From Fistulifera solaris (lineage: Eukaryota), in the NCBI GenBank assembly GCA_030295235.1, contig AP026124.1:248001-312000 (forward strand): DNA of 64,000 nt. The letters run 5' to 3'. The translations under genes were made by a program, and so were the position numbers. Position 1 is the first letter of the stretch, and every line of letters begins with the position of its first letter. The notes beneath the pieces are model-generated. The model searched no databases. It had not been told where the DNA came from and was given only the letters and a program-made list of their open reading frames with translations. Below, piece by piece: positions 3,929 to 55,423 of the stretch.

Positions 3929-4354
3929 ATGACAGAAAATGATTCCAATGGCCAATTTTGAAAGCAGCACCTTTATTTGTTTCCCCATCCAGCCAAGTAT
4001 GGACTGCAATAACTAACAGTATTACTGATTAAGTAATTCAATCTATCTCATCAGCTACTAAGTCTAACCGCAGGTCTTGTCAAAGTTCGTGCGGAGTAAC
4101 ACCTAGAACCTTCCGGGATTGAAATGCACTTGAGTCGGTACCGGTACTTCGGACTTCGGAGTAGCTCGCACAAGCATTTTGTTGGTTGTTTGCGCCGTCG
4201 CTTGTACCGTTTATATAAAAGACCGGGGTTGTGAGCTTTTATTGCAGTGATCCGACTTGTTTTTGGTAGCAATTTGCAGACAAGAAAAAGCCGTGATTTT
4301 ATTGGAGCGGTACTTTGTGCTTTTTGGTGTTCATGCTGGAATATCAACAACTCA

Positions 4355-5124
4355 ATGGGCAGCGAAGAAGTACACAAACGAAAAGGACAAACGGTGAAGC
4401 TTGTCAAAACTGTTTTTGCATTATCACTGTTACGGCGCTATTCATAAAGGGGATACAAATTTTCAAAGATCCACGGAGGAGCAACAAAGACAAGAAGAAT
4501 ACCGAGATCAACCGCGAGTTTATTACCGGGTTACGATCATCTCTACAAGAAGATGAGAGAGGTCCGAAAACGTTACCCATTGTTTGGAGTCAATTACGGA
4601 CTCTTGACGTAATCACAGAGGTCGACAAGCCGGTTGCGGGACGACAACATCCGAATGCAGGTCGGAGAGAGTTTCGTTTTATGGTAGGAGCGGGTGACTG
4701 GACCGGAAAAGCAACAACACCGTCCCATCATCACAAGCCGTTTTCCGTTCGAATTCCTCTCCACGCTACCGTCGCTTTTCAAAATGTGATGAGCAATGTC
4801 ACCATGTTTCGAGCGGTGTATGCGCATGCGTCTGATCCACTCCACGATGCTCCAGCCGTGTATAGACCCTATTTTACACCTCACGACAATGCGAAGCATC
4901 TTATACGGTTTGGCTTTGAAGACAAGAAGGACGACCTGGAGATTGTATCGATTTCTCACGAGCATTGTAACATGGACATGTGGCCGGTGCAATGCGGTCA
5001 CTTCCCTTGGGTGGTGCTGCCACACGGAGCAAACCTTTCTTCTGCACCATCTCCTCAATGGATCATCAATACGAATTTGATTGACGAAGCACTGGACACG
5101 ATTAGTATTTACATGAGAGGGTAG
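4355..5124 (+). CDS. Hypothetical protein, possibly a type II membrane protein
   Basis: A 269-codon open frame. ATG 4355 joins it if one T is restored in the T-run near 4415, giving an N-terminal hydrophobic anchor (VFCIITVTALFI). No family recognised. Confidence 0.4.
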
Positions 5125-6241
5125 TCGAGTTGCTGTAGACACGCCTAGACGGTTTTATGCCCGAGTAAGCGAGAGCGATCCGAAATAGAAGATGGCGAAG
5201 CAAACACGAAACGAAGTGACAGGCGATGAGATTCGGCTATCCTTACTGTATTGACATCATTACGGGATTACGTTGTTTCCTGTATGGAATCATACGTGAA
5301 AGATTGATTATGCGACAGGCTGTGGGTTCTGCTTTCACAAAAAGCGCGTCAAAATTTTGGTTGTGCATTGCGGACTTTATGACGCTTAAAGAGATCTATG
5401 TCGGAAATTGATGGAGCACATGACGGAGTGTCAATTTGTTTTTTTGCTGTAAATACGAAGTGTCGTGAGTCGAATACATTGCCGAAGACAAAGCAAAGTT
5501 CAAATACAATGATTGGCGCGTTGTGACCTGATCCTCTGCTTCAAACTATGTTCCTTTTGTCCTTCACTTACTGAATGAGAGTCACGACACATTTTCGGAG
5601 GGTCCCTATTCTCCCTCATGAAGTTTACGCTTAAGGTTTTATTCTGGTCGAGCTCGCATTAATTTGTTTGAGAGGGGCATCGTAAGACGACGCGAGAGAC
5701 CAAATCAGAACAGACGAGTTTCATTCGAACAATAGATTTTCAGGAATCGCAGAGTTGTTTAGATGAATGGGACTAAGATGGAAGACATCACAGTCATGTT
5801 TGGTGATGTCTTGGTTTGACGTTTGATTTTGATGTGTCCTCTGTTTTGCACCTCGTTGTTGGTGGAAGGACGGGAGGGGAAGAACCTGAATGCTACTTTG
5901 AAAGAAACTGAAGTGAATCCTCAGCACAGAGCGCAACACTAAGAGTGGAGCATAAACTAGCGCGAACAGTAATGATTAATGACTTATGAAGAAGCATACA
6001 TGATTTTTGCGTGCCATGACCGACCATTACTCAAGACGCAAGTGAGTCAAGTGAGTATCACATCGCACGAACACGAAACCGCTTCGGCGCACAGAATCAG
6101 ACAGCATCAGATGGAGGAGCTCCTCTGTCGCCATCACCCACAGCGCGCATCCATCAGTTGTATTAATTTATTATTTTGGTTTAATTATTTGGTTTTGAAA
6201 TGAACAAGTGTTAGCATGTAGGCGTTGTGGTAAACATTTTT

Positions 6242-6817
6242 CATTGTGCTGGGACATATGGGGGACCCTTGCTAGTGCCCGTAACCGCTAACCTATTTCT
6301 AGGATAACTCATATGCACCGCAAGAGCTCCGAAGACGTTAAGCAGATGTCAACAAGCGATCACAAACGCCCATGTATCCGGTTGGGAGCGGAAAGGCGAC
6401 TGTGGCTTTCATAAGCTGCTCAGCGGGTGAACCCCAAACCCCGCTCAACCGTTACCATTGCTTCACCAATCATCGGCGCACACAGTTCTTCGGCACGCCT
6501 CATGGATCCCACAACTCAGGTGAAGAACTTTTCCCAGCACAATGCTCCAGCTGCGTGTTTTCCGGTAAGGCAGGAAGCCTCGCAAAGAGGCAAGCGAATC
6601 GTCGAGACGACACGAGGTTCCCATTTTGCGAGACGACTCCTCCTTCCTCGGGACATACGCACCACAACCCTTCATGCGCTCCGACTGAGTATTCAACCAT
6701 ACGGTCCCAAGCTGTGATCGCAGGCCACAGCTTTGGCAACAACTGAATACGGGGAGGACATCAACCTCTCTCAGTCGCCTTCGAGAGGAGATGTGAGAAG
6801 AAGAAGACGAACGCAGC
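6242..6817 (-). ncRNA. Candidate large structured non-coding RNA of unknown family
   Basis: Nested inverted repeats at 6242-6254/6532-6544 (13 bp, perfect), 6484-6491/6522-6529, 6379-6391/6441-6451, 6550-6556/6811-6817, 6682-6689/6770-6777, 6689-6700/6739-6750 and 6709-6716/6726-6733. GAAA and cUUCGg loops occur on the minus strand. No credible ORF. Confidence 0.55.
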
Positions 6818-7472
6818 GAAAAAAGAGAGAAAGATGTTTGGCGATGCTTCTCCTATCGTAAAATCAAAATATAGTGTGTTCTCACAAACTTCATTTAAAA
6901 TTATATAGAGGAAGCTCTCTAAGTATTCCTGTGCCGAGCAACGGTTTTCTCCAAATATTGGGATCCCACGACCCACGAATGAATGTCACGGTATACACAT
7001 CTGGATATTTTCATTAATGATGAACGCAGCTGCGAGCCCTGCCTGCTCGTATCACACAAGCGGAATACGCGTTTGAAATTCGATTTTCAAAAGGGGAAAA
7101 AGAATGGATGCTAAATCCAATTGGAGGCACTTTGCTTGCCTCAACGATGATGATCGGTGAGAGACGATGATGGATGTTTTTAATTATTTTCTGTGTATTG
7201 ACGATCGATGATGAATGATGATCAGTCTTGTTATTTCAATCGCTCCATTTCAATGTGTAGAATGTTGGCGTGTCTGTTTCTGCTTGTAACGAGTGACGAG
7301 CGACGAGCGGTCGCTGTTACCTGGTACGGTTTTGTTACGTATTATTACGTACTGTTGACGACAATAATGTCGTCGCGACAATCCTTTCCCAATGAATGAA
7401 ATAATATTAACAATAGGCCATCCAGTTGATGATCTAAACATTGATTTCGCGATAAAACATCAAGTTTCAATC

Positions 7473-9549
7473 ATGGATGAACTACCCGTCAAAACCCCAG
7501 CAGCCAGCGATATCTTGGAAAGAGGCTATCACATCATGTCGTCACTTCTTACAAAAGACGAATGTAGGGCTACCGCTTCTCTCGTCGATACATTCTGCCA
7601 GGATATATCCTATCCATCAATCAACAATCCGTCAGAGGAAGGATACGGATCGGGCTGGTTACTTGGTGATCTTCGGGAACTTTTGGCAGATCGAATTTTT
7701 CAACCACTCTATCAATCGAGAGAGCTTATATCATCGAAAGAAGGCTTTGCAATGCACCCAAAAACAACAATTCAGAATAATTCCACAGAGCCATCCGAAG
7801 TAATTCGAGCTGCCGTCATTCTCACAGGGTCTGCCCGAATGTGTTGCAGATCTATCCCCATGCATGAAGAGATCGAACTTTATCCAGGCGATGTACTTTT
7901 ATGGAGGTCGAGTTTGTCGAAAGAAATCAATCTACAGCATGATGATACTTCTGTCCTATTTTATTGCGCCATGATTCCTGCTCCTCATCTTCATACACAG
8001 AATAAGATATTGCAAAAACAAAAACTGGATGCCTATCTGCAACGGAGGACCGGCGATTGTCATCCGGATCGCGAATGTTGGATAGCCGATGAATACCGTG
8101 ACGACCGGCGACACTATTATAGAATGGGTCCACCGCTTTTGACTTTGCGACAAGCGGAATTGTATGGTCTGATTCCCTATCAACGAGACGAGGACGAAAT
8201 TCAAAGAGCTGTCGTACGAGGAATCCGTTTTGTCGACCACTATGAGAATACTCGACCTCGTCTGGCGGTCAAAGATGATGCCCATTTGGAGTTTCTAACA
8301 TTGCCTTCGTCAGCTGATAACAACGGCCTTCTCATGGGACAAGACAAGTATTTGGGTGGTATCGAGTCGCCGTGTGGGAACTATGTTTATGGGGTTCCTG
8401 GTACAGCCCGACAAGTGCTTCGAGTTGAGCTCGCGACAAACCGATTAGATCTCATCGGACCGTTGTTTCCTGGCCCATTCAAGTGGTTACGAGGAGTTCC
8501 TGTACCAGCAACCACCGAGTATCCTGCTGGGTGTTGCATAGCTCTCCCTTGTAATTCTTTGTCTATTTTGAAGATCGTTCCGGACAGGAACGAAGTTTAC
8601 TCGTTTGGCGAATCCGATCTTCGTAAAAACTGCAATATTGACAGTGGTTGGTTCTATCACGGCGGTAATTTTTCTCCGGCAACGGGATTTATCTATGCTA
8701 TTCCAGCCAATGCCAATCGAGTCATGAAATTCAATCCCTACACAGACGAAGTGCAATTTATTGGTCCTGATTTTGGTACAGGGAAACAGAAGTGGTACGG
8801 TGGTATTGAAGGATTGGATGGTAACGTTTACGGCATTCCTCATAACGAAACAGGTCGGTATAGATGTGGTGGATCAGGCGCTCTCTTTTACGCGGTGAGA
8901 CTAACTGACCGTATCTCAAACACTTGCACAGGCGTGCTCAAAATCGATCCCAACACTGACACGGTCGAAATATGGTACCCCGACACACCATTTCCGGAAG
9001 GTCAGTGGAAATGGCACGGAGGATTACGATCGGGACATAAAATATACGGCTTTCCAAACAATGCGGACCAAGTTTTGGTTATTGATTGTCAACTTAGACG
9101 GATCTATACAATAGGAGCGGATCTCAAGTCGGGGCGGCACCGCGATGATAATTGTTACAAATACTTGGGTGGTGCTTTGACGTACGATGACCGCTTCGCT
9201 TATCTTTTTCCGTGCGACGCTGAGCGCGTTTTGAAAATCGATTGCTATTCCGATGAGGTGTCTCCTAATCGGCCCCATCATGACCGATGGTGCGAATAAG
9301 TTTCAAAACGGGTTCGTCGGCCGGGACGGTTGCTTGTACGGTATCCCGCAAAGAGCCCCAGGCGTATTACGGATCGTCCCGAGAGATGACGGAGAAGATC
9401 TAGTTGATATAATAGACTGTGGTATGATGGGAGTGAAGGATAAGTTTGAGGGAGGTGTCATGGGAGCCGATGGATGCATCTACTGCATGCCGTTAAGGGC
9501 AAAAGTTTGTGTCAAGATCGTTCCAGCAACCGAGCGTGTTTTGAACTGA
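7473..9549 (+). CDS. Protein with a degenerate dioxygenase-like N-terminal region and C-terminal GG-x4-G-x-IY-x-IP beta-propeller-type repeats
   Basis: About seven repeats, e.g. KYLGGIESPCGNYVYGVP, KWYGGIEGLDGNVYGIP and KFEGGVMGADGCIYCMP. In-frame intron at ~8854-8931 and a frameshift near 9262. An alternative start exists at 7392. Confidence 0.65.
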
Positions 9550-10216
9550 TTCTCTTTTGCTCAGCATTGGCACATAATACAGATGCCAATCAATTGCATG
9601 CAACAATTAGTTTCATAAGATGCTAGACCAAATTTCATAAAGGATTGGCTAATCAGACGTTTTTATAATTGGCAGAACCCACGCTAAACTACAGAATGAA
9701 GGATTTGCTTGGGAAGCTAAATCTGGCGTCGCCATAGGAGGCTACCAAGTAGAAAAAGAGTGTCGCGGGATTTTCGACCTCATGAAATTCCAATATCCCG
9801 TTCGTTCTGCTAGCCTCTAGTGTAAGCTTTCTGATTAGTTTGCCATGTAAAACGTCGTCTGTGGACCAATGTGTAATCTTGACATCGCCACGACTGCTTT
9901 GCCTAGCCAGATTGCTGACTGTTTCTCAATCTCCGTTCGTTCTGCTCGCTTGGCATGCCATGATTATATTCAGCATCAATTAGCAACACACGCTATGTTT
10001 TAAATACATGCGGATCGTAAAATTCCGTCTTTTACTATAGCCGCAACTGTTGGTTCCCATTTTTCACGACTGCTTTTCAGTCATGAGTCATGAGTGATTG
10101 CATGACGCGGAGACGCCCTGCGTAAATCCGAACTTCGAGTTCGAACGCAATGATGACCATCACAACTTTCGGCGAATTCACTGTTAAATCGGTGCTTCTA
10201 TATTTCACCCAACAAC

Positions 10217-34931: not shown

Positions 34932-37900
34932 CTACTTTGAGTTTGAAGACATGTGTGAGATTTGTCTCACTTTGAATATTTCAGGCCTTTTCGAGAGCTG
35001 CGAGACCAGTTCTCGACCTGCAGCTTTGGGAAAAGCAGACTGAATCGCAAATTCCATTATCGCCGTCGGCCGATCACCCGAAGAGGAGCTTCGTAGTCCA
35101 TATTGGGCTACTTTCACCGGTGACCCATCGTCGTGAACGGGTATAGATTTGATGAGTTTGATTGTGTGTCCCAAAGCATCGTCACGATACTCCGCTTCTA
35201 CGCGAAGGAGTATTGTTTCGGGTCCGTGCTCTTTATCCAATGATACAATAGTAAATTCCCCTAGAATCGACTGAATTGCTTCTGCGACCTCGAGCGATCT
35301 GGGACGTTCGTTTGGAGCTTTGTTGAGCATACTTGTTATCAGGGATTTTAAGGTTGGAAATGATGTACCGACTTTCTGATTCCAATCGGAGGGGAACTTG
35401 TGCGCACGAAGATTGGTCAAGCAGACGCTTCTTTCCATGCCAGTATACATTGGATAGCACAGTTCAAATAGGATAATTCCAAGAGAGTATATATCAGTAG
35501 AAGAATCATAGTCAGATGCATTTGTTTGCTCAGGCGATGCGTAAGACCGGGTTCCCAGATTTGTAGTTAGTATCGCCCGGCTTGAATTGTTCGGACTCAC
35601 TGCATCTGAAATGTCATCTTCAGTGGATGCCTCGCGGCTTAGCCCAAAATCTCCCACTTTGATAATGCCTTTCGTATCCATAAAGCAGTTGCTTGCTATG
35701 AGTGGAGGAAGTGAAGGACAGCAAGCCGACATTAGCATGAAAGATCAAGCAAAATGAGTAACGAATTATGAGGCGGTGCAAGTGCATCACAAAATATAAA
35801 AGAAATGAGACTTACGCTTGAGATCTCGATGGATGAGGCCTTGGTCGTGGACGTATTGAACAGCCTGAGCAATCTGAACAAACAATTGGAGCGCCCTTGG
35901 GATATCGATCCCAGACTCGAGTGAGCCGCGTCTGGCTTCTTCATTCATAAGGAACTCTGCCACAGTACTCTGGCTGCAGAGTTGCATTTGAATGTAGAGC
36001 GTGTGCTTTGCTGCATTGGTTTTGTCAGATTGTGTGTTGGGTTTCATACTTATGTCCCTACTCAATGTCACATTTCGTTTGTGGGAAAACTTTGCATTTT
36101 CGAAAGTTTCCGTTTCAAGAGTTCTACTATCATCGTTCTTGCTCTCTGACATGAACTCAACATCGTTGTGAAAGTTTTTCGCAAGCCGATCTCTCCGTAA
36201 ACTTGAAAAACTAAAGTTGGATGTCTTGTTCCATCCTAAAGGGTTACGTGCATTCACGTGCGTCCGCTGCACATTGTACGCTGAATGGTGGTCATCTTCC
36301 GAGTCTGTAGTAAAAAGAGAATTGTCTGTTGTATCATCAAATGTTTTCTGCTCTTCAGGTCCATTGCTCCTTGCTGCTGAGACCGGCTTTTCGTCGTCGT
36401 CAATTTCAAGCCAAGCAGTGTAATATCGAACAATGTTAGGATGATCGAGTACAGCAAGAATCTTTACTTCACGAAGCACACGCTGTAGGCGCCTCTGAAA
36501 TCCGGGATCGCCGGAATCTGCGCCCTTGACAGATATTTTCTTGATAGCGTATTCGCGTCCGTCAAGAACATTTTTACATCGATAAATCCTGCCGAATCCA
36601 CCAGCACCCAGCGCCTCAAATTCCTCAAACTCCGATGCATATCGAGAGTACCGAACCAAAGGTATGCCTCCCAGTTGAACAGGTTGTTTAGAATCTTCAA
36701 CAGGGCGCTGATTTTGTTCATTACCGGAAGCGGAAAGGATCATGCCATTGTCCTCGTTTTTGGACATGGCAGCGCTTCTCGACAAGTCATTCTTGCCCGT
36801 GAAGTTTGTGCTTTCTACAAAAGCTCCAGGTAAACTTTGGCTCCTTTTCAAGTTACCAGATCGAGGTGGGAGTTTTGAAGTAGAAGTTTCCAGGTCAAGC
36901 GAATAGGCAACATGGGGCCGTTTCTTCCTCGCGTCCGTCGTTGCTTCCAACAACCATTTTCTCTTTTTTGAGTTGTACAACCGATGGAGACCTACCGACA
37001 AAACAACCACACAAATCGCGAGAAATTCGACTACTCGCCAGCTCAACAAAAGTCCTCCCGATTGGATAGAAGTTCGCTGAGGAAGGGAAGTAAGAGTTGC
37101 TTTTTCAGGTTTGTTGAAGACAAATCCAAGTCTAGCTTCAAAAGTATCGTCTTCAACGAGACAAGTATTCCCAATAGAAAGCGCTGTTTGTCTGTGATTT
37201 CTAGACTCTCCAGAAGGAAGCAATTTTTGGGGCTCTTTTCGTCCCACATCCCATCCCACTTCTTGCGGGCGATAGTGCGCACGAGCTGCCTCCCCATGCC
37301 GCTTTTGACCAAGTCTCATCATGTTCTACAGTTTCGCGAGGCGGATAGGTGAGCTCTAACTGTTTGCTTTCCGTCTCTTCGCTCATTTCATCGAAGTCGA
37401 GGTCACTTTCTACGACTGTGACCGTAGTCCATTGCCCGTTGCTTATTCCAAAAACAGAGGAAAGGACGCTGGGAGTAGTCTGTTGCCATAAAATGCTGCC
37501 ATTCTCCGGATCCACCGCAGATAATGTGCGACCAGCATTTGAAAACAAGATAGAGGGCATTTTCGCTTGTCTGAAATGACTCTCCGTCAGGCCCACGAAA
37601 TCATCTTCATCTGCCTCGAGGACAGTCTCGTCATCAAACAAAACATCTCGAAAATCCAATGCTTGATAGTTCCCCAGTGAAACATTCCAAGCTTGTTCCC
37701 CTGTAGACTCGGAAACATGTCGAATCCAGTACTCCTTTCTTTGTAAAAGTAACGCAGCTTCCGTCGGCCGCTTTTCTCTTGAAATGGACTCCCCATTTTC
37801 CGTCTTCCACAAAAGATGCCCCTTATCATCCAATGCGATAAGACTTGTTTCTGACGATGCCGTTAAAATTCCGCATTCCTGTGTAGTGGGAGTACAGCTT

Positions 37901-53993: not shown

Positions 53994-54188
53994 GGGCCGT
54001 TTCTAAGCGGAAGTTTCGTATTTCGTATTTTCGTATTTCGCGTGCTCCCACACTTGCCCAATTTGCCCAAACGGGAGAGAAATGAAAAATAGAGAAGTTA
54101 TCGTCTGTCGCTTTCTCCGTAAAACCTTGGATAAGAACGCAAAATGCGAAAATACGAATACAAAACTTCCGGTTAGAAATAATGGCCC
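53994..54188. mobile_element. PIF/Harbinger (Tourist-like) MITE, 195 bp
   Basis: ~50-bp imperfect TIRs starting GGGCC and ending GGCCC, with 3-bp TSD TCA at 53991-53993 and 54189-54191. Confidence 0.8.
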
Positions 54189-54199
54189 TCAGTAAAAGT

Positions 54200-55423
54200 G
54201 GCAACCAGTCCTTCCTGGTGGATGGTGGACCTTTTGGACCATCCGCCGCTGGATTTACTTTGGAGGAAGACATACCTTAGCGACATGCCATCCAAAAACC
54301 TTTTTGGATGCAGCCAATCAGAATCAGACGATCCAAAAAGTCCAAAAGGTCCAACCAATCAGAATGCGTTATCCAAAAGCGACTTTTAAAGCAATTGAAA
54401 ACGCTAGTTTGATATCGATGGCGACGAAAGAAATTTATTGAGGAACGAAGGTTTTGTGCGAACGACGAAACGCGAAAATTTACAAAACGCGAAAATTTAT
54501 TGAGAATGGTACCGGTACCAGGTATGGTGACTTACCCAGAAAATATGGGCGTGTGGTGTTCTCGCATACCCAAAAAATATGGGAGTGTGGTGTTTTCACG
54601 TACCCAGAAAATATGGGGGTGTGGTGTTTTCACGTACCCAGAAAATATGGGAGTGTGGTGTTTTCACGTACCTAGAAAATATGGGAGTGTGGTGTTTTCA
54701 CATACCCAGAAAATATGGGGGAGTGGTGTTTTCACATACCCAGAAAATATGGGAGTGTGGTTTTTCACGTACCCAGAAAATATGGGAGTGTGGTGTTTTC
54801 ACGTACCTAGAAAATATGGGAGTTTGGTGTTTTCACGTACCCAGAAAATATGGGCGAGTGGTGTTTTCACATACCCAGAAAGATGGGTGGTGTTTTCACA
54901 TACCCAGAAAATATGGGGGTGTGGTGCTTTCACGTACCCAGAAAATATGGGAGTGTATTGTTTTCACGTACCCAGAAAATATGGGAGTTTGGTGTTTTCA
55001 CGTACCCAGAAAATATGGGAGTGTGGTGTTTTCACGTACCCAGAAAATATGGGAGTGTGGTGTTTTCACGTACCTAGAAAATATGGGAGTGTGGTGTTTT
55101 CACGTACCCAGAAAATATGGGAGTTTGGTGTTTTCACGTACCCAGAAAATATGGGAGTTTGGTGTTTTCACGTACCCAGAAAATATGGGAGTGTGGTGTT
55201 TTCACGTACCCAGAAAATATGGGAGTGTGGTGTTTTCACGTACCTAGAAAATATGGGAGTGTGGTGTTTTCACGTACCCAGAAAATATGGGAGTTTGGTG
55301 TTTGTGCGAACGACGAAACGCGAAAATTTATTGAGAAAGACGCCTTTCGGCGTCTGCCCATCGCACGCTTCGCTCGCGAGCAATAAAAATCCAAAAAAGG
55401 TCCACCAGCATGGAGTGGTTGCC
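54200..55423. mobile_element. Non-autonomous TIR element, Merlin-like, with an internal minisatellite
   Basis: Imperfect ~35-bp TIRs (GGCAACCA...TGGTTGCC), perfect 8-bp TSD GTAAAAGT at 54192-54199 and 55424-55431, and repeated subterminal TCCAAAA motifs. No transposase. Confidence 0.78.
54533..55302. repeat. Tandem array of 23 units of 34 bp
   Basis: Consensus TACCCAGAAAATATGGGAGTGTGGTGTTTTCACG. One unit is 33 bp, one is 29 bp and the last is partial. Confidence 0.95.

Follow-up and report, generated by a model that had tools for sequence, protein, structure and literature searches.

The segment at 6242–6870 on the minus strand of the window (the whole stretch of 64,000 nucleotides that was analysed) is best read as the conserved non-coding core of one copy of an unclassified dispersed repeat family of about 1 kb, non-autonomous and probably mobile or otherwise selfish, a reading to which we assign a probability of roughly one half. 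The sequence is multi-copy, non-coding and conserved, and helices are present in it; the thermodynamic folding signal is weak and stands out only marginally from what the rest of the window gives. The original prediction had placed here, in a gene-free gap, a stand-alone structured RNA of two domains, both of which fall within the core. The core was delimited by contig depth and cover and is also the candidate transcript.

The gap without a credible coding sequence (CDS) extends from 5126 to 7467, with no strand assigned, between plus-strand open reading frames (ORFs) at 4297–5124 and, from its ATG, 7473–9299. That 5125–7472 holds no credible CDS was borne out, as none of the eight ORFs of the gap has a Pfam family at or near the cut-off; the search returned sub-threshold noise only, with no transposase or reverse transcriptase (RT) remnant. 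The depth of X1 contigs is 16.7 in 5206–6009 vs. approximately 36 in the coding flanks, and one X1 contig joins 5125 to 7468. This joint could be an empty site, or it could be a diverged second haplotype with unalignable intergenic DNA. No second copy was found inside the 64 kb by blastn at a word size of 9. A scan for bacterial-type promoters and terminators, which is irrelevant for a eukaryote, gave a result at shuffle level.

The evidence on copy number comes from public contigs placed on the window. The 172 X1 contigs on 6 kb fall into identity classes of 99% and above (65 contigs), 95–99% (39), 90–95% (40) and under 90% (28). Eight single-copy flanking X1 contigs have depths of 15.3–22, and the summed X1 depth is 764.6 over 6211–6411, 931.3 over 6412–6612, 416.1 over 6613–6813 and 362.1 over 6814–7014; the full series of bins from 6010 to 7215 reads 104, 765, 931, 416, 362 and 154. 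Up to 10 different X1 contigs lie over one position (6957). The kind of library behind X1 is a guess (“RNA?”), and we treated it as DNA in view of its even coverage of genes and intergenic DNA; with an RNA library the depths would be measures of expression, but the large number of variant contigs would remain as a sign of multiple copies. The high depth and the variant contigs together mean that the segment is the conserved core of a repeat with roughly 20–50 copies. A single, stand-alone RNA gene of the housekeeping type is contradicted by the depth of 362–931 over 6211–7014 relative to 15–22 for single-copy sequence, which corresponds to tens of copies.

The repeated unit extends in this copy approximately from 6097 to 7083 on the minus strand, with uncertain borders (6097–6126 on the left and 7079–7215 on the right). 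Single-copy X1 contigs break off at 6126 and resume at 7050, an X5 copy matches from 6126, and there is a loose contig end at 7080. At variant sites between 6314 and 6762 the core is represented by one or two very deep contigs (285–429 each), and at its edges there are 8 contigs at 6233 and 6–10 at 6957–7014. Loose ends cluster at 6227–6244 and at 6870; by eye these are similar to the sequence of the window itself, as are those at 6958, 7011 and 7080. The similarity between copies fades gradually at both edges, with no sharp common border.

Conservation beyond this genome was confirmed by relatives in other runs and in metagenome contigs. The core is covered at 6126–6869 in X5, at 6239–6781 in X7 (a metatranscriptome library) and at 6298–6585 in X9; these contigs have approximately 85–98% identity and are confined to the core region, the sole flanking match being a 188-nt X5 contig within the downstream gene. 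Exact 21–22-nt probes from the core gave no match in metagenome, viral and prokaryote genome contigs. Copies differ by at least five indels of 1 nt (after 6288, at 6318, after 6762, after 7008), and in one of the X5 contigs the AT-rich tract to the left of the core appears by eye to be shorter by about 18 nt. The window's copy alone differs from all other placed copies at 6400, 6550, 6620 and 6627, differs from nearly all of them at 6314, agrees at 6623 only with the one X5 contig that covers this site, and is without one base after 6762; it is slightly decayed.

A dispersed element of this kind would amount to about 20–50 copy-equivalents in a diatom-like genome, with diverged relatives in other organisms and metagenomes, and may have Pol II-type signals of its own on the minus strand. 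These would be the TATA-like CTATATAA at 6908→6901, approximately 31–37 nt upstream of the right edge of the conserved core, a transcription start near 6870, and the AATAAA at 6172→6167 within the AT-rich tract (~6160–6205), which is followed by a G/T-rich stretch at 6150→6131 and may act as a poly(A) signal. A T6 run is found at 6824→6819. The transcript would keep a few hairpins (6265–6330 and 6576–6635), which might, for example, be recognised by the machinery that copies the element. Mobility, the start and end of transcription, the strand and the roles of the hairpins are all properties that we infer. To our knowledge, nearly all eukaryotic non-coding families of tens of dispersed copies are transposon-derived.

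Comparison with individual classes of mobile element does not point to any one of them. For an LTR or solo LTR, ends were scanned at 6060–6244 on the left and 6850–7299 on the right for TG...CA, short inverted repeats and a 4–6 bp duplication; the only TG/CA pair with a duplication has a 4-mer (6209/7056), and with borders this uncertain the scan gives no strong exclusion. The minus-strand unit ends in ...GACA at 6126, and no matching TG end with a duplication was seen by eye. The candidate TATA, AATAAA and G/U-rich elements do follow one another in the U3-R-U5 order, but the R region under an LTR layout would be unusually long, at about 700 nt. There is no inverted repeat at the borders of the repeated unit that would suggest a MITE or another element with terminal inverted repeats. 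Domain B itself (6242–6544, minus strand), closed by a perfect 13-bp inverted repeat (6242–6254/6532–6544, 13/13 Watson-Crick), was considered as a MITE and rejected because contigs of other copies (X5, X7 and X9) cross both arms and no flanking duplication is present.

A non-autonomous Helitron would have 5'-TC and 3'-CTRR ends, with a hairpin close to the latter, and would sit between an A and a T. Motifs of this kind can be picked out by eye on the minus strand (A|TC at 7084|7083–7082, a palindrome at 6125→6114 and CTGA|T at 6100–6097|6096), but they carry little information and were found post hoc. The palindrome, a perfect 12-nt GAGGAGCTCCTC at the left border of the repeat (6114–6125), is a lead only, unmatched in one X5 copy that has 10 unlike letters before 6126. 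With regard to a SINE, no tRNA-like sequence and no 7SL or 5S match were found, and the X5 homology continues past the AT-rich tract to 6126–6132. For the 3' fragment of a LINE, the depth rises 5'→3' on the minus strand (154, 362, 416, 931, 765), with no RT or other Pfam match. Long direct repeats are absent from the unit. Two candidate target-site duplications were set aside: homology continues beyond the AT-rich 11-mer TTTAATTATTT at 6180–6190 and 7179–7189, and for GTATCACA at 6055–6062 and 7049–7056 chance alone would give about 1.3 8-mers of this kind in the set of pairs scanned. A match to a transposon was one of the outcomes that would have counted against the original prediction, and the segment comes close to it as part of a multi-copy family, although no hallmark of a transposon was seen.

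These results also weigh against the mobile-repeat reading that we prefer. No convincing target-site duplication, terminal inverted repeat or TG..CA pair is seen, the unit is without long internal direct repeats, a tRNA-like head or a transposase or RT remnant, its borders fade gradually with none sharp and common, and only one copy is seen with its flanks. In addition, copies differ far less in the core than in the flanks, which is the behavior of a transcribed gene under selection and is not predicted by a neutral transposon burst, and one compensatory pair together with three wobble-compatible changes suggests a constraint on RNA pairing.

The alternative that survives best, although we consider it unlikely, is a multi-copy family of genes for a structured non-coding RNA of an undescribed kind, about 630 nt long and made by Pol II from the minus strand. 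With the TATA at −31 to −37, transcripts would begin near 6870 and finish either near 6242 or at a poly(A) site past the AATAAA, and the core would be kept uniform by selection or concerted evolution while the promoter and terminator flanks drift. The division of the contigs, with one or two very deep ones in the core and 6–10 in the flanks, agrees with such a family, as does the position of the conserved block, which begins approximately 31–37 nt after the TATA-like box and corresponds to the structure originally described. The base rate argues against it, in that very few RNA gene families with tens of copies have members of this size, and none was matched in Rfam.

All of the helices, tetraloops and signals reported earlier are present in the sequence. 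In addition to the stem of domain B, they include the closing stem of domain A (6550–6556/6811–6817, 7/7 pairs), helices at 6682–6689/6770–6777 and 6709–6716/6726–6733 (8/8 pairs each), the arm at 6255–6260/6310–6315 (6/6), the alternative-partner helix at 6422–6427/6440–6445 (6/6) and, within 6484–6529, the helix at 6484–6491/6522–6529, which has 8/8 pairs in this copy, a local z of only −1.24 and no conservation. The proposed gain of G-U pairs on the minus strand also holds, with the helix at 6689–6700/6739–6750 going from 8 Watson-Crick pairs and 4 mismatches on the plus strand to 8 Watson-Crick and 4 G-U pairs on the minus strand. The minus-strand hairpin at 6686–6753, whose 12-bp lower stem needs four G-U pairs and forms on that strand only, nevertheless has a z of −1.91 on minus and −1.77 on plus, neither significant. 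A further 10-bp match found in the present analysis (6393–6402/6772–6781) is specific to the window's copy.

Two hairpins are more distinctive, and in both the signal is far stronger on the minus strand. The one at 6265–6330, with the tip CCUA-GAAA-UAGG, is the most stable local element, with a z of −4.23 on minus (0/200 shuffles) and −1.24 on plus; against the genomic background its minus-strand z is −4.16, which places it among the 28 loci of the window that fall below −3.5. The 60-nt hairpin at 6576–6635 has a z of −4.51 on minus (1/200 shuffles; 58% of the ensemble) and −2.24 on plus. The GAAA and UUCG loops, the latter with a variant UACG (read by eye), favor an RNA, and in an X7 variant, also read by eye, CCTC..GAGG replaces CCTA..TAGG with the loop unchanged, giving one compensatory pair under the GAAA loop. 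Of four family substitutions at sites paired in the minimum free energy (MFE) structure, those at 6270 (T>C, A-U to G-U), 6550 and 6627 (C in the family) give G-U on the minus strand and would give A-C on the plus strand. The change 6400 C>A breaks an MFE pair, and the family G at 6620 would pair with C6591, where the window's copy has C-C. The strand asymmetry of the two best hairpins, the three of four substitutions pairable on minus only and the TATA-like box upstream of the conserved block support the earlier choice of the minus strand as the better RNA candidate. As support for an RNA gene family these variants are tiny in number (3/4, and 1 compensatory), with pairs taken from the MFE structure of one copy.

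At the level of the whole segment, comparison with shuffled sequences yields a marginal signal: the folding is more stable than that of most shuffles, but only with a z of −1.92 on the plus strand (5/100 shuffles as stable) and −2.25 on the minus strand (2/100). The domains taken alone on the minus strand reach −2.33 (1/100; domain B) and −2.36 (3/200). Relative to a genomic background formed by regressing the energies of 576-nt windows on base composition over positions 1–40512 of the window, the candidate has a z of −2.46 on both strands, with 3 of 408 background strand-windows as low or lower, a value that is flattered because the boundaries had been set at the closing stems. In the whole 64 kb there are 7 inverted repeats that share an exact seed of 12 nt within 400 nt, the 13-bp stem among them, and at the 64-nt scale there is no enrichment of stable hairpins (block-mean rank 2100 of 7914 on minus and 3825 of 7914 on plus). 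Such a weak whole-segment signal counts against an RNA gene family.

The relatives also fail to keep at least three of the structural features that had been named. The helix at 6484–6491/6522–6529 has lost one arm to a 10-nt deletion in the lineage of X5 and P0001 (a metagenome ORF described below), which is 10 nt shorter between 6450 and 6493; in the X5 contig the 24 letters before 6492 end in ...GCGCAA and run directly into 6492, so that the left arm is gone. In the arm at 6255–6260/6310–6315, the pair 6256–6314 is broken by 6314 T>A in the family majority unless 6256, which is not visible, also differs. Together with the pair broken at 6400 and with indels of 1–18 nt between lineages, these losses count against an RNA gene family. 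On the side of transcription, the metatranscriptome contigs of X7 cover 6239–6781 and nothing of the neighboring genes, and three more runs of the P1 study hold 28–34% of sampled words, shares that are not evidence of habitat or expression; contigs cannot reveal the strand, ends or level of a transcript.

With regard to known RNA classes, none had been claimed and none was found, as Rfam 15 gave 0 matches at gathering score in the 64 kb. In E-value mode on 5000–8000 and 6120–6920, the best scores were 11.8–17.9 bits vs. cut-offs of 38–140, with families covered that include RNase P/MRP, SRP, snRNAs, telomerase RNA, ribozymes, riboswitches and group I/II introns. A tRNA scan found 0 genes. The CTAACC at 6287–6292 on the plus strand was considered as a telomerase template and rejected, as it is without a 1.5-repeat template and the sequence is multi-copy. 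The more specific proposition of an undescribed class of multi-copy Pol II RNA genes in a diatom group, about 630 nt long, each with its own TATA, uniform by selection or gene conversion and with the hairpins at 6265–6330 and 6576–6635 conserved on the minus strand, appears to us doubtful.

It is improbable that the conservation reflects small protein-coding genes or decayed pseudogenes, for example the 66-codon minus-strand ORF at 6700→6503 or the plus-strand ORF at 6342–6746. For the latter, a word-indexed protein search gave no scored match, and an exhaustive search of 1.84 billion representative proteins gave a single one, P0001, an 86-aa ORF from metagenome contigs that has no further relatives and whose cluster has 2 members. 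P0001 aligns to 6321–6545 in one frame, where the alignment crosses a stop codon, and to 6430–6564 in another frame, and the match thus reflects homology at the DNA level and not coding. The minus-strand ORF has no candidate protein homologue. Three of the four family substitutions in it (6550, 6620, 6623) are synonymous, the fourth being Q>R, and no listed indel inside it shifts the frame, but with six frames inspected such a proportion is unremarkable. In the P0001 lineage this ORF loses its stop (A6502>G on the plus strand) and has a W>R change, the forced changes are equal at first and third codon positions (~6 and 6, hand count), and the most conserved part, 6211–6500, lies outside it. 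With no Pfam family and a sole protein relative that breaks frame, the segment is non-coding, as had been proposed.

A transferred fragment of a high-copy cellular sequence, either rDNA spacer (ETS or IGS) or organelle DNA, is very improbable. It would explain the high depth, the presence in a rRNA-depleted metatranscriptome, the GC-rich structure and the homogeneous majority variant, but no rRNA, tRNA or organellar RNA family occurs anywhere in the 64 kb, the many distinct variant contigs and diverged homologous flanks indicate dispersed copies, and, judging by their loose ends, the contigs from other runs do not continue into rRNA-like sequence. The GC content of 0.53–0.54 is unlike that of diatom organelle genomes and counts against an organelle origin. 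Ordinary single-copy intergenic or UTR sequence with stems formed by chance fits folding statistics near the genomic background but has almost no probability left in view of the high depth, the many variant contigs and the presence of relatives in further data sets, which show the segment to be neither single-copy nor free of constraint.

As a dispersed repeat the segment is ordinary, one more unclassified family for a diatom repeat catalogue, and it carries the caution that stem-rich, gene-free gaps in such genomes can be mere repeat copies. The uniformity of the core, its own promoter- and poly(A)-like signals, its presence in an RNA library and the hints of preserved pairing are reasons for interest, and a true RNA gene family would add a new, abundant non-coding RNA to those of an ecologically important group of algae. 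We know of few structured RNAs in diatoms beyond the universal ones.

Among known systems, SINEs of the CORE, V and Deu types likewise have a central block much better conserved than the rest and shared across species. They have a Pol III head derived from tRNA, 5S or 7SL and are under 500 nt; the present family differs from them in having no tRNA-like portion, a T6 run within the candidate transcript, and flanks that are homologous from copy to copy. The families of the U1, U2, U4 and U5 snRNAs and the U3 snoRNA resemble the segment in their conserved block with drifting flanks, upstream TATA-like box, many copies and GNRA/UNCG-type hairpins. They differ in that the block here is 3–6 times longer, has no Rfam match and no Sm-site or box motif by eye, is followed by AATAAA in place of a 3' box and has helices that are unevenly kept in relatives. 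Compared with the unclassified or non-autonomous interspersed repeats of diatoms (the “unknown” class of repeat annotation; LARD, TRIM, solo-LTR-like or non-autonomous Helitron-like), we see here no TG..CA with duplication, no terminal repeats, no internal direct repeats and no sharp common borders, and a core far more uniform than its flanks. Those repeats share with this family a length of about 1 kb, the non-coding character, dispersal in tens of copies, the occurrence of diverged subfamilies among related organisms, apparent transcription, and promoter- and poly(A)-like signals as in an LTR.

We regard it as certain enough that the segment at 6242..6817, originally predicted to be a stand-alone structured RNA (a very divergent housekeeping RNA or an undescribed class), is no unique housekeeping RNA but belongs to a conserved family that is non-coding and present in many copies, as contig depth and variant contigs indicate. 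An index search with positions 6000-7000 returned 20 public sequencing runs from 13 studies, four of which (X1, X5, X7 and X9) had their contigs aligned to 4000-10000. X1 is exact in unique DNA (e.g., a 1128-nt contig over 5003-6126 with 0 differences) and, though labelled 'RNA? (a guess)', we infer that it is genomic DNA because its depth is even across genes and intergenic DNA (15.3-22 for single contigs, 17-52 for bins). The summed X1 depth is 104 at 6010-6210, 765 at 6211-6411, 931 at 6412-6612, 416 at 6613-6813, 362 at 6814-7014 and 154 at 7015-7215. On these 6 kb lie 172 X1 contigs, with 65 at 99% identity or more, 39 at 95-99%, 40 at 90-95% and 28 under 90%, and up to 10 distinct contigs, among those listed, cover one position (6957). 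Many variant contigs mean many copies, whatever the type of the X1 library; if it is DNA, the depth would correspond to some 40-50 copy-equivalents for the core of the repeated unit (~6242-6870) and to about 20 for its right part. No second copy was found within the 64 kb. The unit extends from ~6097-6126 on the left to ~7080-7215 on the right, since single-copy contigs leave off at 6126, to be taken up again only at 7050, and the match of one X5 copy starts at 6126. A perfect 12-nt palindrome, GAGGAGCTCCTC, is located at 6114-6125, exactly where the X1 single-copy contig stops and the X5 copy begins to match.

The core is nearly identical among many copies, with both flanks homologous but diverged: at each site between 6314 and 6762 that sets the window apart from the family, the family's variant comes from just one or two contigs of great depth (285-429 each), as against 8 contigs at 6233 and 6-10 at 6957-7014 among those listed. 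Alignments from X1, X5 and X7 break at 6227-6244 and at 6870 in the loose ends listed, and the unaligned letters past these breaks still resemble the window by eye; the data on the other copies come from one contig alignment, partly from 30-letter loose ends read by eye, and the window's copy is the only one seen with its flanks. This copy is the odd one, as every other aligned copy differs from it at 6400, 6550, 6620 and 6627 in the differences listed, nearly all others do so at 6314, all but the single covering X5 contig do so at 6623, and all others have an extra A after 6762.

The segment is also conserved beyond this genome. X5 contigs cover 6126-6869, X7 contigs 6239-6781 and X9 contigs 6298-6585, at ~85-98% identity and in that region only, with the sole exception of one 188-nt contig of X5, whose sequence is that of the downstream gene without a difference. 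X7 is a metatranscriptome library, though contigs reveal neither that an RNA exists nor which strand it comes from or where it ends. When the plus-strand ORF at 6342-6746 was compared exhaustively with 1.84 billion representative proteins, 1 matched: P0001 (86 aa, E 8e-11), which comes from two metagenome contigs (559 and 1106 nt). Tblastn places P0001 on 6321-6545 in a frame that crosses the window's stop codon (6339-6341) and on 6430-6564 in a second frame, so the homology is at the DNA level, with the frame not kept. P0001 stands for the diverged lineage with the greatest depth in X5 (21-25), because in an X5 contig the 24 letters left unaligned ahead of 6492 encode, by eye, P0001 residues 50-57.

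The window is eukaryotic nuclear DNA densely packed with genes, whose long ORFs run without interruption and encode kinases, nicastrin, a P450, copine and a WDR3-like protein. The candidate sits in a gap of 2.3 kb flanked by the stop codon of a plus-strand ORF (5122-5124) and the ATG at 7473. Neither the upstream ORF (4297-5124, 275 aa) nor the downstream one (7473-9296, plus strand, 608 aa) has a Pfam family; the protein-atlas cluster nearest to the latter is a diatom hypothetical protein (score 0.91, weak evidence), with DUF6923 in 13% of its members. In each of the coding stretches 4614-5025 and 8592-9014, X1 has two contigs of equal depth (~17-20), one identical to the window and the other with 39/412 and 43/423 differences (~10%), and because of these pairs the organism seems to hold two strongly diverged haplotypes or subgenomes; X1 contigs of the second form have no alignment at 85% anywhere within the intergenic gap 5126-7467. 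An X1 contig at single-copy depth (15.5) jumps 133 nt, from 7081 to 7215, a GATGAT-rich stretch with short direct repeats at 7145-7160/7206-7221; the skip probably reflects an indel allele a short distance before the gene starting at 7473.

We put the probability that the family is a dispersed, probably mobile repeat at about 0.5, as nearly all known families of this sort are transposon-derived. Also in its favor are the diverged subfamilies in other organisms, the LTR-like order of the signals and the decayed state of the window's copy. Counting against it, no target-site duplication, terminal repeats or TG..CA pair was found at the approximate unit ends, no coding remnant in the gap ORFs and no sharp border shared among copies. 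Helitron-like motifs do occur on the minus strand (A|TC at 7084|7083-7082, the palindrome at 6125->6114 and CTGA|T at 6100-6097|6096); they are post hoc and of low information, and one X5 copy mismatches the palindrome.

A multi-copy Pol II RNA gene family is the less likely of the two main readings. Every helix originally predicted is present in the sequence at the stated coordinates, including the perfect 13-bp stem at 6242-6254/6532-6544, the perfect 7- and 8-bp stems and the 12-bp helix 6689-6700/6739-6750, whose four A-C mismatches on the plus strand all become G-U on the minus strand. Confirmed as well are the GAAA and UUCG tips of the minus strand, along with its TATA-like CTATATAA (6908->6901), its T6 run (6824->6819) and the AT-rich tract. 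The core, which coincides with the candidate, starts ~31-37 nt downstream of this box, a spacing that favors an RNA gene, as does the uniformity of the core against its drifting flanks; AATAAA at 6172->6167 (minus) lies beyond the core, with a G/T-rich stretch also after it.

The folding of the whole segment is marginal relative to dinucleotide shuffles, with z -1.92 on the plus strand (5/100 as good) and -2.25 on the minus strand (2/100), and the minus-strand domains singly give -2.33 (1/100) and -2.36 (3/200). Against 576-nt windows of the same DNA (step 192, both strands, positions 1-40512) with energy regressed on base composition, the candidate, its ends picked at closing stems, has z -2.46 on both strands, and 3/408 background strand-windows are equal or lower. 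The 64 kb contain 7 inverted repeats, the 13-bp stem among them, that share an exact seed of 12 nt within 400 nt, and 64-nt windows over the whole 64 kb give the candidate region no enrichment in stable hairpins (block rank 2100/7914 on minus, 3825/7914 on plus). With fold statistics this near background, thermodynamics alone therefore establishes no RNA. Two hairpins are strand-specific, which again favors an RNA gene: 6265-6330 (z -4.23 on minus, 0/200 shuffles, vs. -1.24 on plus) and 6576-6635 (-4.51 on minus, 1/200, vs. -2.24 on plus). Against the genomic background, the former (z -4.16) belongs to a set of 28 loci in the window that score below -3.5; 64-nt windows over the latter reach only -2.5. 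Hairpins in the 64-nt windows at 35937, 49849 and 1689 (z -5.25, -5.04 and -4.94) are, given their composition, more stable than any in the candidate and show how common such hairpins are here; those at 35937 and 1689, at least, are inside kinase ORFs. The window's most hairpin-rich block is 54000-54900, where block-mean z over 640 nt falls lowest on either strand (-1.79 and -1.47), with inverted repeats at 54022-54046/54134-54158 (25 nt, 88%) and 54226-54239/54340-54353 (14 nt, perfect), a palindrome at 54507-54520 and partial overlap with ORFs without a Pfam family.

Conservation of pairing was read from a few listed variants and the constraints of P0001, counts far too small for a test, and deriving the pairs from this one sequence favors them. 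Some variants preserve pairing, again in favor of an RNA gene. X7 has CCTC-TTTC-GAGG for the window's CCTA-TTTC-TAGG, so that beneath the GAAA loop of the minus strand one pair is fully compensated, and an X5 variant turns the UUCG loop into UACG, still UNCG. Three of four family substitutions at sites paired in the predicted minus-strand minimum-energy fold (6270, 6550, 6627) change Watson-Crick to G-U on minus and to A-C on plus, and the family G at 6620 could pair with C6591, a C-C mismatch in the window's copy. Other variants break pairing: in the P0001/X5 lineage the stretch between 6450 and 6493 is shorter by 10 nt, so that the perfect 8-bp helix 6484-6491/6522-6529 lacks its left arm; the A that most copies carry at 6314 disrupts the arm 6255-6260/6310-6315 unless 6256 also differs; and the majority A at 6400 disrupts a pair of the predicted fold and the 10-bp match 6393-6402/6772-6781. 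The weak global fold and these non-conserved helices count against an RNA gene family, whose transcription would be putative.

A small-protein gene or pseudogene family is improbable. As originally predicted, the gap holds no credible CDS, its ORFs having no Pfam family and, apart from P0001 with its broken frame, no homologue in the protein searches. In the minus-strand ORF 6700->6503 (66 codons), three of four family substitutions are synonymous; it was rejected as a gene since in the P0001 lineage it loses its stop, one Trp becomes Arg and the forced changes show no third-position excess (~6 first-position vs. ~6 third-position, counted by hand). From these results and at least five 1-nt indels between copies, we conclude that the family is non-coding. 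An rDNA-spacer or organelle fragment, and chance, likewise have small probability.

Nothing in the whole window reached the gathering score of an Rfam family, and E-value mode returned noise only (11.8-17.9 bits vs. cut-offs of 38-140); no tRNA-like sequence was found, and at the level of literature listings nothing bears on this sequence. The family failed membership tests as an Rfam family, a TIR element, a SINE or a single-copy RNA gene; with unit ends placed approximately and not to the base, those for LTRs, Helitrons and LINE fragments failed or were equivocal. In the way it works the family comes closest to an unclassified interspersed repeat with putative Pol II signals of its own, of the sort a solo LTR has; read instead as RNA genes, it would resemble a multigene family of the snRNA type.
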